DNA of 64,000 nt from a virus (lineage: Duplodnaviria > Heunggongvirae > Uroviricota > Caudoviricetes): the IMG/VR virus record IMGVR_UViG_3300032236_001858; one strand, given 5' to 3'. Within the stretch, counting starts at the first letter, position 1. Every line of letters starts with the position of its first letter. Position numbers and translations under genes: made by a program. The notes under the pieces were generated by a model. That model had not been told where the DNA came from and ran no database searches. It saw only the letters and a program-made list of their open reading frames with translations. Below are positions 7,914 through 47,137 of this stretch, one piece after another.

Positions 7914-7996
7914 TGGAAGGTGGCCGAGTGGTTAATGGCGCTTGACTGTAAATCAAGTCTCTTGCGAGTACGGGGGTTCGAATCCCTCCCTTCCAA
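7914..7996 (+). tRNA. tRNA-Tyr (GTA)
   Basis: CTTGA-CT GTA AA-TCAAG, long V-arm. Confidence 0.9.
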
Positions 7997-8061
7997 CAAA
8001 AATAAAAAAAATTAAAAGGGAAGACAAAACTTTTTATATATACATTAATATAATTAAAACG

Positions 8062-8142
8062 ATGAAAAATTTAACTAACATATCAACAGCAATCATAGGA
8101 GGCGGCGCGGGAGCGAATGTCACTGGCTGGACTATGTTATAA
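8062..8142 (+). CDS. attenuator leader peptide B (Gly/Ala/Ile): MKNLTNISTAIIGGGAGANVTGWTML
   Basis: ATC ATA GGA GGC GGC GCG GGA GCG run; TCACTGGCTGG (8120-8130) pairs 11 bp with the terminator 5' arm. Confidence 0.87.
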   Translation: MKNLTNISTAIIGGGAGANVTGWTML

Positions 8143-8166
8143 TCTTTCATCAAAAGAATTAAACGT

Positions 8167-8200
8167 AACCCAGTCAGTGAAAATTGACTGGGTTTTTTTA
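8167..8200 (+). terminator. attenuator terminator B
   Basis: AACCCAGTCA-GTGAAAAT-TGACTGGGTT + T tract. Confidence 0.9.
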
Positions 8201-8203
8201 TTT

Positions 8204-8287
8204 CGGCAGGTACCGATGGTGTCTTATACACACTATAACCGTAGCGGGAAGTTGAAAACGTGGGTTCGAATCCCACCCTGCCGACCA
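8204..8287 (+). ncRNA. D-armless tRNA-like RNA, anticodon TAT
   Basis: Acceptor CGGCAGG/CCTGCCG-A-CCA, canonical T arm, GGTGT-CT TAT AC-ACACT, only 7 nt where the D arm should be. Confidence 0.7.
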
Positions 8288-8347
8288 ACTGAGAAAACAG
8301 TAAATCGTGAGCCAACACTAAAACCATCCCACCAGGATGTAAAACTC

Positions 8348-8419
8348 GCGGGTATCGTATAGTGGCTATTACTCCTTCCTTCCAAGTAGGAGACGTCGGT
8401 TCGATTCCGGCTACCCGCT
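8348..8419 (+). tRNA. tRNA-Gly (TCC)
   Basis: CT TCC AA loop, GCGGGTA/TACCCGC, U73. Confidence 0.88.
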
Positions 8420-8427
8420 CAAATTTT

Positions 8428-8502
8428 GGGGTCACATGTACCAAGGCTAGGCGATGATGCTTTGCAAGCATCGTGTGGTGAGTTCGATTCTCACTGGCTC
8501 CA
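8428..8502 (+). tRNA. tRNA-Ala (TGC)
   Basis: GATGC-TT TGC AA-GCATC; G3:U70. Confidence 0.85.
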
Positions 8503-8521
8503 CAAAAAATGAATAGTAAAA

Positions 8522-8689
8522 ATGACTATATTCAAATATTTAGTAGATGGAAAACTTTACTTCTTGTACAATGGAGTAAATGGATATATTGCTATACCAT
8601 TTGAGCATAGTGGAAATACTATATCAAATCCAAATCTTGATGAATTTGTACCAGTGAAAATGGGCAATGGTTCTGATGGATTTGTATAA
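8522..8689 (+). CDS. small hypothetical protein (55 aa)
   Basis: ORF MTIFKYLVDG... fills the gap between tRNAs. Confidence 0.5.
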   Translation: MTIFKYLVDGKLYFLYNGVNGYIAIPFEHSGNTISNPNLDEFVPVKMGNGSDGFV

Positions 8690-8692
8690 AAT

Positions 8693-8767
8693 GCGAAAGT
8701 CGTATAGTGGCTATTATATCAGCTTGCCAAGCTGAGGACGGCAGTTCGATTCTGCTCTTTCGCTCCA
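8693..8767 (+). tRNA. tRNA-Gly (GCC)
   Basis: TCAGC-TT GCC AA-GCTGA, U73, encoded CCA. Confidence 0.9.
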
Positions 8768-8809
8768 ATATGCCGGATGATCCACCGTTGAATCGCGGTG
8801 CCGGCTCCA

Positions 8810-8883
8810 GGGGAATTAGCTCATTTGGCTAGAGCGCTTGTCTGGCAGACAAGAGGTGACGAGTTCAAATCTCGTATTCTCCA
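8810..8883 (+). tRNA. tRNA-Ala (GGC)
   Basis: CTTGT-CT GGC AG-ACAAG; G3:U70. Confidence 0.9.
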
Positions 8884-8890
8884 CTAATAA

Positions 8891-8970
8891 GCGGGTGTCG
8901 TATAGTGGCACGTAGTAGATTATGCCGGTCTTCCAAACCGGAGATGTGAGTTCGATTCTCATCACCCGCT
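8891..8970 (+). tRNA. tRNA-Gly (TCC), enlarged D loop
   Basis: CCGGT-CT TCC AA-ACCGG. Confidence 0.85.
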
Positions 8971-8977
8971 CAAAGAT

Positions 8978-9045
8978 AGTAGTAATGTACGAGTGTTACT
9001 TCGTATTTCCAACGACTAGTTCAGGTTCGAATCCTGGGTTCCGCT
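8978..9045 (+). pseudogene. degenerate tRNA-Gly (TCC)
   Basis: TT TCC AA loop, T arm and 3' GTTCCGCT kept; 5' acceptor strand lost. Confidence 0.5.
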
Positions 9046-9058
9046 CAAATGATAATAT

Positions 9059-9084
9059 GCGGGATTAGTGTAACGGTAGCACAG
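9059..9084 (+). pseudogene. 5' half of a tRNA-Gly
   Basis: GCGGGATTAGTGTAACGGTAGCACAG, then diverges. Confidence 0.5.
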
Positions 9085-9120
9085 TAAAAACACACTCAGC
9101 AAATTTTCTCTATCTTATTA

Positions 9121-9190
9121 GGGCCAGATGCCAACGGCAGGTCAACTCGCTTGCACCGAGATTGTTTGGGTTCGATTCCCACTGTGTCCA
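9121..9190 (+). tRNA. degenerate tRNA-Ala (TGC)
   Basis: CTCG-CT TGC AC-CGAG, G3:U70, bulged acceptor stem. Confidence 0.55.
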
Positions 9191-9346: not shown

Positions 9347-12310
9347 ATGAAAAAGATCCTAAAGTTCTTACTAGTGTCATTGACTCTAGTATTTTTTGTG
9401 CCTAAACAAGCACAAGCCTCTCATTGCGCTGGAGCTGAATTATTATTCCAATGGCTTCATGACTCAACTTATCAACTTTATTACAAGTTTTACCGTGATT
9501 GTGCCGGTATTAATGAGCCAACAAATGTTACAGTTTGTTGTAGTAACAATTGTAATTCAACTACAATCAACGTAATTTTAAACAAAGTTACTACACTTAT
9601 TCCTCCTGGTGTAAATAATGGAAATGAAGTTGCTAGAGTTTGTCCTGGTATACATACCACTTGTGGTAATCCAGCCGGAACAACACCTGGCTACAGAGAA
9701 TGGTGGTATGCTAATACTGTAACTCTACCATCAAGATGTAACCACTGGACTTTTTCAGTAAGTCAGTCAGCTAGAAACTCTGGTATTACTAATTTATCTA
9801 ATCCAGGTTCTCAAAATCTTTATACAGAAGCCACACTTGATAATAGAGATGCTCAAGGTGATACCTCACCTTTCTTTTCTGTTAAGCCGGTCCCGTATAT
9901 CTGTGCTAATATACCATACACTTATAACAATGGAGCTTATGACTTAAATAACGACTCTATGGTGTTTAAAATTGTTCAACCAAATGGTGGCTCAGGTTGT
10001 CCTCCAACCACGTCAGCCATTGCTTTTGCTAATACAACACCAAGTTTAAATCTAACTGATAATCCTTTACAAACAAACAATACTTTTTCTATAAATGCTC
10101 AAAATGGATTGATGAGTTTTACTCCAGCTGGAACACAAATTGCAGTTGTAACTATTCAAGTAGATGAATATAGAAATGGTAGAAAAATTGGTTCTGTAAT
10201 GCGTGATATTCAAATTATTGTTTTGTCTTGTAATGTTCAGCAACCAGAAGTAAATATATCTGCTGCTTCTTTAAATAATGCAACTCTTGATAATAATGGA
10301 AACATTACAGCTTGTGCTGGAACACCTTTTAGTTTTTGTTTTGATGCTACAACACCAGATTCAAATGGTATTTTACTCGCATCTGATAACTCAAATATTG
10401 TAATGCCTAATTCAGTAGTATCATATACTAATCAAACTACAGATACGGTTACTGGTTGTTTTTCTTGGTGGCCTTCTGTGTATGATACAGGTTATAAAAT
10501 TTTTACAATAACTATAATGGATTCATCTTGTCGTCCTCCTGGCTTAATGTTTTCACAAACATTTACCTTACCAATTTATGTTTGGCCTGCGACTAATATT
10601 CTAAGTGATACCACAATCTGTAGAGGTGGTGCTGCAAATTTACTTGCTGTTGGTGGTGGAAATTTTATTTGGTCGGTTTTACCAGGAGGTTCTGCTTTAT
10701 CAACTTTAAACTGCACAAACTGCTCAAATCCAGTTGCTACTCCAATAATCACAACTCAGTATGTAGCTACATCTCAAATAACAAATGCTATTTGTAAAAA
10801 TAAAGATACGGTAACAGTAGCGGTTATTCAACCATTTCAGATTATACTACCTGATACAACAACATGTGTTAATAATTCTTTACAATTAAATGCAGTAGTT
10901 AATACAACAAATAATTATACTATATCCTGGACACCAAATACTTATTTAAGTAATGCTGGTATTAATAATCCAATTGTAACACCACCATCTGGTCAATCAT
11001 TGATAACTTACTATGTTAAAGTTTCTTCAATTGGTTCATCAGCTTGTTCAGTTACAGATACATTCAAATTAAAAGTTTTACAAGGATTTACTATCTATAA
11101 TCATGATACAACAATTTGTCTTGGTAAATCAGTAAATATAGCCGGCTCTGGTGATGCTTTATATAATTATACTTGGACACCAACCAGTGGTATAAGTACA
11201 ATACTTACACCATCAATAACACCAAATGTAGTTACAACAACAACGTATATTTTAACAGGTAAATATCCTGGTTGTAAAGATTCTACTAATAAAATTAAAA
11301 TCACAACAGAACCTGTACCAACTGTAGTAGCTGGTGCTGATAGACAAATATGTAGTGGTGATACTATTCATCTTACACCTTTAGTTACTCCAAGTTATCC
11401 ATATGTTTACACTTGGACACCAGGATCTTCATTAGATAATCCAAATTCTGAATTTGCTATCTTTTCAGGATTAATCACAACTCATTTATCACTAACTGTT
11501 AAATCACCAGTTGCTAATTGTTCATCAGCTGATAGTTTAATTATTAATGTAGTTAAACAATCTTTCTTAAAGGTTTCACCACAAGACACTTCAATTTGTC
11601 CATCTGATACAGTTATGATTAAATTAACCACACCTAATGATAAGTTAGTTATTTTTAATTGGAGCCCTCATAATTTTATCAGTGATTATAATTCAGTTAA
11701 TCCTTATTTATACCCACCAACATCAATGGTTTATACTGCTTGGGCTACTGATACAGCTGGTTGTAATGATACTATATCAGCTTATATTGAAATTAGACCA
11801 GGTGCTGTAATTGACATGCCTACATCAATTGGTTTATATCCTGGTGATTCTTATCAAATAACACCTCAAACTAACTGTACTAAATTTATTTGGTTTCCAT
11901 CAAGTGGTTTAAATTATGACTCATTATCAAATCCAACAGTGACCAACTTAGGAGTTAATACTAAGTATATAGTTATTGGTCAAACAGAATGGGGATGTAA
12001 AGTATCTGATTCAATAAATGTAATGGTTATTAATGATTCTTATATTGATATACCTAATGCTTTTTCACCTACAGGTGATCACAATAAAACACTAAAAGTA
12101 ATTCATTTAGGTTCTGCTACTCTTGAATATTTTAGAATATACAATAGATGGGGTAATAAAGTTTTTGAAACAAATGATATTAATGTTGGATGGGATGGTA
12201 CTTATAATGGTCAAGCTCAATCACAAGGTGTTTATGTTTATGAAGTAAAAGCAATAACATATAAAGGTAGGGTCTTTATTAAACAAGGCAATATAACTTT
12301 GATGAAATAA
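9347..12310 (+). CDS. secreted protein with T9SS type-B (gliding-motility-associated) C-terminal domain
   Basis: Signal peptide ..AQA-SHCAGAEL; Ig/PKD-like repeats; IPNAFSP..IYNRWGNKVF..GWDG..GVYVY..GNITL. Confidence 0.88.
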   Translation: MKKILKFLLVSLTLVFFVPKQAQASHCAGAELLFQWLHDSTYQLYYKFYRDCAGINEPTNVTVCCSNNCNSTTINVILNKVTTLIPPGVNNGNEVARVCPGIHTTCGNPAGTTPGYREWWYANTVTLPSRCNHWTFSVSQSARNSGITNLSNPGSQNLYTEATLDNRDAQGDTSPFFSVKPVPYICANIPYTYNNGAYDLNNDSMVFKIVQPNGGSGCPPTTSAIAFANTTPSLNLTDNPLQTNNTFSINAQNGLMSFTPAGTQIAVVTIQVDEYRNGRKIGSVMRDIQIIVLSCNVQQPEVNISAASLNNATLDNNGNITACAGTPFSFCFDATTPDSNGILLASDNSNIVMPNSVVSYTNQTTDTVTGCFSWWPSVYDTGYKIFTITIMDSSCRPPGLMFSQTFTLPIYVWPATNILSDTTICRGGAANLLAVGGGNFIWSVLPGGSALSTLNCTNCSNPVATPIITTQYVATSQITNAICKNKDTVTVAVIQPFQIILPDTTTCVNNSLQLNAVVNTTNNYTISWTPNTYLSNAGINNPIVTPPSGQSLITYYVKVSSIGSSACSVTDTFKLKVLQGFTIYNHDTTICLGKSVNIAGSGDALYNYTWTPTSGISTILTPSITPNVVTTTTYILTGKYPGCKDSTNKIKITTEPVPTVVAGADRQICSGDTIHLTPLVTPSYPYVYTWTPGSSLDNPNSEFAIFSGLITTHLSLTVKSPVANCSSADSLIINVVKQSFLKVSPQDTSICPSDTVMIKLTTPNDKLVIFNWSPHNFISDYNSVNPYLYPPTSMVYTAWATDTAGCNDTISAYIEIRPGAVIDMPTSIGLYPGDSYQITPQTNCTKFIWFPSSGLNYDSLSNPTVTNLGVNTKYIVIGQTEWGCKVSDSINVMVINDSYIDIPNAFSPTGDHNKTLKVIHLGSATLEYFRIYNRWGNKVFETNDINVGWDGTYNGQAQSQGVYVYEVKAITYKGRVFIKQGNITLMK

Positions 12311-33427: not shown

Positions 33428-33499
33428 TTCGATATGGCCTATTGGTAGGGTGCAGGGGGACATGTTCCTGAGGACTTGGTTCGATTCCAGGTATCGATA
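33428..33499 (+). pseudogene. tRNA with aberrant 8-nt anticodon loop (Val GAC- or Met-derived)
   Basis: Intact acceptor and T arms; CAGGG-GGACATGT-TCCTG. Confidence 0.5.
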
Positions 33500-33506
33500 C
33501 AAACAT

Positions 33507-47060: not shown

Positions 47061-47131
47061 GGACATATAGCTTAAAAGGAAAGAGTACCTCCAGTGGGAG
47101 GGGAGTCTTGGTTCAAGTCCAGGTATGTCCG
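47061..47131 (+). ncRNA. tRNA body with non-canonical anticodon arm
   Basis: GGACATA/TATGTCC-G and normal T arm; arm CCTCC-AGTG-GGAGG (4-nt loop) or AG TGG GA in a weaker register. Confidence 0.55.
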
Positions 47132-47137
47132 CAAAAA

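Follow-up and report, generated by a model that had tools for sequence, protein, structure and literature searches.

Leader-peptide attenuators, such as trpL, hisL, leuL, pheL, thrL and ilvL of Escherichia coli and Salmonella, stand before amino-acid biosynthetic operons. Composite leaders are known among them (Thr and Ile codons in thr; Ile, Val and Leu codons in ilv), as is the use of rare codons (CUA in leu). In E. coli pheST, with its pheM leader, attenuation makes phenylalanyl-tRNA synthetase responsive to the supply of charged cognate tRNA. tRNA genes themselves are textbook cases of control at the level of the promoter, by growth rate and the stringent response. We have analyzed a stretch of 64,000 nucleotides (nt), termed here the window, from the IMG/VR virus record IMGVR_UViG_3300032236_001858, a member of the Caudoviricetes. 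Positions 8014-9190 of the window contain a short open reading frame (ORF), an intrinsic terminator and an array of tRNA genes, which together we call unit B; it is one of seven units of this kind in the genome, cited by letter where necessary. From the computations described below, we judge it likely that the region is a self-regulating tRNA operon of a huge phage of Bacteroidota, controlled by a ribosome-mediated attenuator.

The leader ORF occupies positions 8062-8142 of the plus strand. It starts with ATG, comprises 26 codons and a stop, and encodes MKNLTNISTAIIGGGAGANVTGWTML. A phage promoter-like motif, AAAAGGGAAG..AACTTTTTATATATACA, is located at 8014-8044 on the same strand, 17 nt upstream of the ATG, and is kept in the orthologs. 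Codons 10-18 (8089-8115) read GCA ATC ATA GGA GGC GGC GCG GGA GCG, i.e., A I I G G G A G A, an unbroken stretch of nine codons for Ala, Ile and Gly. The preliminary description of this DNA had drawn attention to an IIGGGAGA leader and to the GC-rich run that begins at the ATC codon. All the elements of that claim are found at the places given, in frame within the ORF, and the G+C content of 8098-8115 is 16/18, compared with 29.9% genome-wide. Ile, Gly and Ala account for 11 of 25 leader residues, where 4.5 are expected from the frequencies in the phage's own proteome (A+G+I = 0.181; binomial P = 0.0025), and 11 of 25 codons can be decoded by the anticodons of the array (P about 5e-4). By our own arithmetic, a nine-residue run of these amino acids would arise by chance with a probability of ~4e-6 across 17 possible start positions.

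The ORF is followed by the terminator (8167-8199, plus strand), having a 12-bp stem formed by 8167-8178 with 8183-8194, and a run of seven T's at 8193-8199. The 8167-8194 hairpin with its T's is the best terminator-like site in the region. Within the last seven codons of the ORF lies the 5′ strand of an antiterminator (region 2; 8120-8130, plus strand), which forms 11 bp (10 Watson-Crick and one G-U) with region 3 at 8170-8180. An 11-bp antiterminator at 8120-8130 had been noted before, and is confirmed; its partner had been given as 8169-8180, but is actually 8170-8180. Region 3 is common to the antiterminator and the 5′ arm of the terminator, so that the two structures are mutually exclusive. 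The free energy of the antiterminator duplex is −20.1 kcal/mol, compared with −9.8 kcal/mol for dinucleotide shuffles (z = −4.8, 0/200). An inner hairpin at 8133-8166 (plus strand) extends the antiterminator stem-loop in folds of 8062-8181 and 8116-8205. When only the 5′ arm of the terminator has been made, the minimum free energy (MFE) fold consists of the 8120-8130:8170-8180 pairing together with this inner hairpin, and in the RNA 3′ of the codon run the antiterminator is calculated at −25.6 kcal/mol against −21.4 kcal/mol for the terminator. With the T tract extending to 8199 and the first tRNA-like gene beginning 4 nt on, at 8204, there is no room for a promoter between them, and neither a Bacteroidota −7 box nor the phage promoter-like motif was found in the interior of the array; the array could therefore be expressed only by read-through.

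To find relatives of the leader, metagenomes were scanned with a key consisting of only the first 24 nt of the ORF, a search that is unbiased towards the codon run and the switch. B leaders were found in two published huge-phage genomes, one IMG/VR contig and about 30 metagenome contigs, giving 25 distinct sequences. In all of these the ORF is open from the ATG through the run, and each has an I/G/A run, the switch and tRNAs for Ile(TAT), Gly and Ala. The N-terminal sequence MKNLxNIS of the leader is conserved and, in the two published genomes and the IMG/VR contig, the unit follows a Glu/Tyr array, as it does here. A search of 24 IMG/VR records, mostly fragments, with a covariance model of unit B (R1) returned mostly sister leaders and two merged A+B units, and no further separate B orthologs.

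The codon choice of the B leaders is the inverse of genome usage, with the phage's rare synonymous codons preferred. GGC makes up 55% of Gly codons in the B leaders as against 6.6% in phage genes, GCG 79% of Ala codons as against 5.5%, and ATA 71% of Ile codons as against 33%. The anticodons in the array that read GGC, GCG and ATA are Gly-GCC, Ala-UGC and Ile-UAU, respectively. Codons that are read slowly would give a more sensitive sensor.

Both helices are supported by comparison of the 25 B orthologs. For the terminator 97.5% of alignment cells are paired. The corresponding value for the antiterminator is 83.5%, compared with 18-44% when the partner is slid, and four of its pairs are changed on both sides; covariation of this helix in homologs was one of the checks that the preliminary description had proposed. 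Since the six core pairs hardly vary within B, comparison across units is a stronger test of the antiterminator. We therefore examined 47 distinct units, among which there are 23 terminator cores. In 81% of the units the tail of the leader is more complementary to the arm of its own terminator than shuffled sequences are (median z = −2.8), and in 46 of the 47 the cognate duplex is better than those formed with non-cognate arms, with mean free energies of −12.6 and −7.9 kcal/mol, respectively. The conserved sequence TGGCTGnnTTATG is read in three frames or stop positions among the B orthologs, and selection at this point acts on the RNA rather than on the peptide.

The seven units of the genome were identified by scanning it mechanically for the combination of short ORF, terminator and tRNA array. 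A leader rich in Tyr and Glu codons precedes tRNAs for Glu and Tyr; the unit B leader, rich in Ile, Gly and Ala, precedes those for Ile(UAU), Gly and Ala; one rich in Asn, Leu, Met, Thr, Val and Ile is found before Asn, Ile, Leu, Val, Thr and Met tRNAs; one rich in Asp, Pro and Gln before Asp and Pro; the unit E leader, rich in Gln, before tRNA-Gln and then the glutaminyl-tRNA synthetase GlnRS; one rich in His, Lys, Phe and Trp before Phe, His, Trp and Lys; and one rich in Ser and Arg before Arg and Ser. When each leader was scored against each array, the actual assignment ranked first, alone, among the 5040 permutations, whether the scoring was by amino acid or by anticodon-readable codons. 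Among 46 units, the presence of a tRNA in the array goes with a 1.8- to 16-fold enrichment of its amino acid in the leader for 16 of 18 amino acids; the P values of this comparison are descriptive, because the orthologs are not independent.

Rearranged relatives extend this correspondence. In two remote huge-phage relatives (L044, 1501-1596; L048, minus strand, 1501-1596) the Glu, Tyr and Gly tRNAs are contained in one operon, which in L044 additionally holds an Ile tRNA, and the leaders of these merged operons mix Tyr, Glu, Gly, Ala and Ile codons. With its single combined leader, the merged operon has the appearance of units A and B fused in nature. A further type of leader (L088, 520-681, minus strand; L112; L082) has the MKNLxNIS start followed by a core rich in Val, Leu, Phe and Arg, and stands before a Phe/Val/Leu/Arg array. 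It has a different terminator/antiterminator pair (AATCCCGAT...). The N-terminal scaffold of the leader seems to be reusable.

We have studied the effect of ribosome position on the RNA by a stall scan, in which the nascent RNA is folded up to the terminator loop with everything 5′ of the leading edge of the ribosome masked. With the A site on the cognate run, the probability of antiterminator pairing lies between 0.66 and 0.99 in all seven units. In each of the seven it collapses zero to two codons past the run, reaching 0.01-0.34 at the stop codon. For unit B the probability is 0.90 up to codon 16, 0.80 at codon 17, 0.49 at codon 18, 0.26 at codon 19 and 0.07 at the stop. Of the 25 B orthologs, 24 place the boundary between −1 and +1 codon from where the run ends, and the other has no scorable run of three I, G, A or V residues; at the stop the probability in the B orthologs is 0.00-0.22. 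In the leader rich in Val, Leu and Phe the boundary is at the end of its longer run. The modeled boundary stands where attenuation requires it, a position for which no other reason is apparent to us. When the full terminator was instead folded at equilibrium with a masked ribosome, discrimination was seen in units B and C only, and the nascent-transcript model was used in place of this.

The anatomy of the unit, its conservation, the covariation of its two helices, the co-variation of leader codons with arrays and the geometry are thus observed. The attenuator proposed in the preliminary description is supported by them, in that every prediction that could be tested at the level of the sequence (codons in frame, mutually exclusive helices, preservation in 25 orthologs, covariation of leader and array, and geometry) was borne out. 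We infer from these observations that the leader is translated, that ribosomes stall upon it, and that read-through changes as a result.

The proposed mechanism is as follows. Host RNA polymerase would transcribe the 26-codon leader, with a ribosome following the polymerase. If charged tRNA-Ile(AUA), tRNA-Gly and tRNA-Ala were plentiful the ribosome would run over 8120-8130 towards the stop codon at 8140, blocking the antiterminator pairing. With 8120-8130 covered, the 8167-8194 hairpin would form and transcription would stop at the T tract, short of the first tRNA gene by 4 nt. Should any one of these tRNAs be scarce, the ribosome would stall with its A site on codons 10-17 (8089-8112). This would leave 8120-8130 free to pair with 8170-8180 once that had been made, so that the terminator would be blocked and the polymerase would continue. 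Read-through would yield tRNA-Ile(UAU), two or three tRNA-Gly, two or three tRNA-Ala and a 55-amino acid protein. The new tRNAs would speed translation of the leader and so shut the operon again, i.e., negative feedback.

A number of alternative explanations have been considered. The one that survives best accepts a real, translation-dependent switch, but supposes that it senses general translation capacity or the timing of infection (e.g., through ribosome loading on phage transcripts), the codon bias being a by-product of structural G+C. The GGCGCGGG core is almost invariant, and in RNAalifold it is paired with the antiterminator strand; furthermore, in units B and C the antiterminator is formed even by untranslated nascent RNA. 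Both speak for such a sensor. Yet structure alone leaves unexplained why every one of the seven leaders is enriched in just those amino acids that its array serves, and why the leader changes where arrays are merged or different. Moreover, AT-rich runs (Asn, Lys, Gln, Tyr and Phe) serve in other units. We regard a general sensor as improbable.

The hairpin might alternatively be the ordinary terminator of the upstream Glu/Tyr tRNA operon, with a small ORF that is fortuitous or unrelated and a Gly/Ala array that has its own promoter. Terminators are common after tRNA operons, this hairpin is 170 nt past the tRNA-Tyr gene of that operon (7914-7997), and we estimate that an open frame of 26 codons would occur by chance about once in ten at such base composition. 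However, the first tRNA-like gene lies only 4 nt beyond the T tract and there is no promoter motif inside the array, while a promoter-like motif is present between tRNA-Tyr and the ORF. The ORF, the I/G/A run and the antiterminator are kept in 25 orthologs, and each of the seven arrays shows this arrangement again, with a leader of matching composition. This explanation is very unlikely.

Slightly less probable still is a T-box-like riboswitch, in which the leader codons would serve as specifiers, binding the anticodons of tRNAs directly with no ribosome involved. T-boxes too sense tRNA charging through a choice between terminator and antiterminator, and govern translation genes. In unit B, however, the cognate codons are many, contiguous and in frame with a conserved ATG, a stop codon follows, and the stall geometry fits the footprint of a ribosome. 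No T-box (RF00230) or other cis-regulatory Rfam family was found at gathering score in the window, nor, between positions 8000 and 9300, at E values up to 1. We give equally little credence to a functional small peptide (e.g., a glycine-rich secreted or modified one) with the hairpin as its own terminator: the MKNLxNIS N terminus is conserved and some peptide precursors have Gly-rich cores, but the C-terminal third is not conserved as a peptide, with three frames or stop positions over the same nucleotides, the same N terminus bears quite different cores in other units, and no modification or export genes adjoin. General sensor, ordinary terminator, T-box-like element, functional peptide and chance each fail to explain the matching of leaders to arrays.

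Several points weigh against the attenuator itself. The stall scan hinges on an assumed leading edge of the ribosome (A site +12 nt), and coupling of transcription to translation in the host is assumed. Around one quarter of the B orthologs have an antiterminator duplex that is no better than shuffles (z near 0). In equilibrium folding with the full terminator, the terminator is favored in most orthologs and in five of the seven units, so the switch must be kinetic. In the E. coli trp attenuator the terminator likewise wins at equilibrium. The full-length MFE fold sequesters 8120-8130, whereas the nascent-RNA model does not. The conserved 1:2 helix (the anti-antiterminator) has only 4 bp and no covariation, and the untranslated B leader forms the antiterminator in the nascent-RNA model (0.90); taken together these suggest that the default state may be ON rather than OFF.

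Other reservations concern the codons and the signal. The choice of rare codons may instead reflect the G+C needed for structure, and the near-invariant GGCGCGGG could perhaps be kept for RNA structure and not for decoding. There is no GCC or GCU codon in the leader to match tRNA-Ala(GGC), and in some orthologs the run includes Val and Thr, for which there are no matching tRNAs. Finally, the model cannot separate a scarcity of tRNA from a scarcity of the amino acid or its synthetase.

If the unit is an attenuator of this kind, it would explain how huge phages carry 50 or more tRNA genes without constant cost, and would provide a testable answer to the question of what phage tRNAs do, namely that they top up specific species that are limiting or attacked. 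It would place classic attenuation in viruses of the Bacteroidota, a phylum where such control has been little studied. It would also offer compact, modular, codon-specific sensors for synthetic biology, with a shared N-terminal scaffold, swappable codon runs and matched terminator/antiterminator pairs. More tentatively, and with clearly less confidence than we have in the attenuator of unit B, the seven attenuators might form a genome-wide, codon-resolved network sensing tRNA demand. Each operon would then be an OR gate responding to a shortage of any cognate charged tRNA, and host tRNAs would be replaced only when depleted, e.g., by anticodon nucleases or tRNA-degrading defenses during infection. 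Were the demand network real, it would be the first known instance in which decoding of their own codons controls tRNA genes, and would constitute a counter-defense coupled to a sensor.

We turn now to the array itself, the genes of which are encoded on the plus strand. The first (8204-8288) is a non-canonical tRNA-like gene identified from its fold and an Rfam tRNA score of 34.8 bits over 8204-8284, with the anticodon UAU (Ile, reading AUA). It has no D arm, a 7-bp anticodon stem, a long variable region and an encoded CCA. Such an element is present in L096, L098 and L078 as well. In relatives the 7-bp anticodon stem is kept through four double changes, and the acceptor stem through further ones; in other relatives, among them the two published genomes and the IMG/VR contig, a canonical tRNA-Ile(TAT) occupies the first position after the terminator. 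The element is a conserved, functional-looking RNA and not a relic. The preliminary description had recognized the TAT and its match to the ATA codons of the leader, which is borne out by these relatives. The array is not restricted to Gly and Ala as had been proposed, since it starts with the Ile(UAU) gene and holds a conserved 55-amino acid ORF.

The genes that follow are tRNA-Gly (UCC) at 8348-8420; a non-canonical tRNA-Ala (UGC)-like gene with G3:U70 at 8428-8505, for which the acceptor and T arm were found with the tmRNA model and by folding, and the anticodon loop was read from the sequence; the 55-amino acid ORF at 8522-8689; tRNA-Gly (GCC) at 8693-8767; tRNA-Ala (GGC) at 8810-8884; tRNA-Gly (UCC) with an 11-nt insert in the D loop at 8891-8970 (Rfam 54 bits); and, last in the array, a borderline tRNA-Ala (UGC)-like element at 9122-9190, whose Rfam score of 29.0 bits equals the cut-off. 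A degenerate piece in which only the T arm is left lies at about 8990-9050. The tRNA predictions over 8348-9190 show that the earlier list of Gly TCC/GCC/TCC and Ala TGC/GGC/TGC was essentially right. The ORF has 35-84% identity by tblastn in 16 related B arrays, and no match in Pfam, PHROGs or the ESM Atlas; its product would be co-regulated with the Gly and Ala tRNAs. Between tRNA-Gly and tRNA-Ala, 8768-8809 forms a stable hairpin (−16.4 kcal/mol) ending ...GGCUCCA, which could be a minihelix with a CCA-like end.

Unusual tRNA genes are found elsewhere in the genome. Many of its tRNAs are present in both canonical and non-canonical form (Glu, Asn, Ile, Thr, Met and Gln genes of 85-87 nt). 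Inside arrays ARAGORN calls tRNAs with a four-base anticodon (acat) at 33428-33500 and a two-base anticodon (gt) at 47061-47132 of the window. Outside the window, at genome positions 220260-220410 and 221075-221215, there are, by eye, tRNA-like genes in which a long insertion parts the D arm from the anticodon arm, and the ORF between these two interrupted genes resembles, again by eye, a class II synthetase-like protein.

The virus record comprises 476,236 bp with 29.9% G+C and at least 53 tRNA genes, and the closest relatives in the databases are genomes of uncultured phages, 642 and 635 kb in length. The promoter-like motif upstream of the B leader also precedes leaders C, D and F and tRNA-Met. 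The motif TTTTTAATATATA at 8031-8044 recurs in near-copies at 33 other sites in the genome; a probable phage-specific promoter, it precedes many ATGs, on either strand, at a distance of 3-30 nt. Several units are preceded by −7 boxes of the TAnnTTTG type. The next ORF after the array (9347-12310) encodes a protein of 987 amino acids that begins like a signal peptide and carries a CHU_C sorting domain for type IX secretion (53 bits), an export signal of the Bacteroidota borne here by a phage protein. The CHU_C domain and the TAnnTTTG −7 boxes point to a Bacteroidota host. A pattern scan of bacterial genomes gave a lone match inside a gene of ~300 amino acids from Flavobacteriaceae; this was a chance match and gave no clue to the host. 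No match to the RNA polymerase beta family was obtained in the phage genome, which does encode a sigma-70 family protein (genome position 209692-209898), and it is therefore plausible that transcription is performed by host core polymerase, obeying intrinsic terminators.

How does unit B compare with the systems already described? In mycobacteria, polycysteine leaderless short ORFs act as Cys-responsive attenuators (bioRxiv 10.1101/834739). By that account, they resemble unit B in having a very short or absent 5′ untranslated region and a small ORF of cognate codons that governs an operon, and differ from it in their mechanism and in their targets, which belong to Cys metabolism. T-box riboswitches (RF00230) resemble unit B in sensing tRNA charging and in choosing between terminator and antiterminator upstream of translation-related genes, but no ribosome takes part in them, the tRNA being bound directly by Stem I and the T-box sequence. 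We found no description of attenuation of tRNA genes in the full-text literature searched, a coverage outside which most subscription journals fall, and a term search of the huge-phage paper PMC7162821 for 'attenuat' and 'leader' found neither. As far as we have found, codon decoding that feeds back directly on transcription of its own tRNA has not been described. E. coli pheV was considered as a precedent for a tRNA-gene attenuator and rejected, as there is no leader ORF there.

The pheST attenuator is like the phage system in controlling a component of the translation apparatus, and the sister unit E precedes GlnRS. Unlike unit B, its control is cellular, acts on a synthetase and responds to one amino acid, with no tRNA gene under it. 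With the biosynthetic attenuators unit B shares a short ORF having a run of cognate codons, an antiterminator that overlaps the end of the ORF, an intrinsic terminator, and a kinetic choice determined by ribosome position. It differs from them in that the 1:2 pause or anti-antiterminator helix appears weak or absent, that it is viral, and that it would regulate tRNA genes instead of enzymes. In addition, unit B is one of seven units that jointly cover nearly all the amino acids, and its tRNA output would feed back directly on the sensor.

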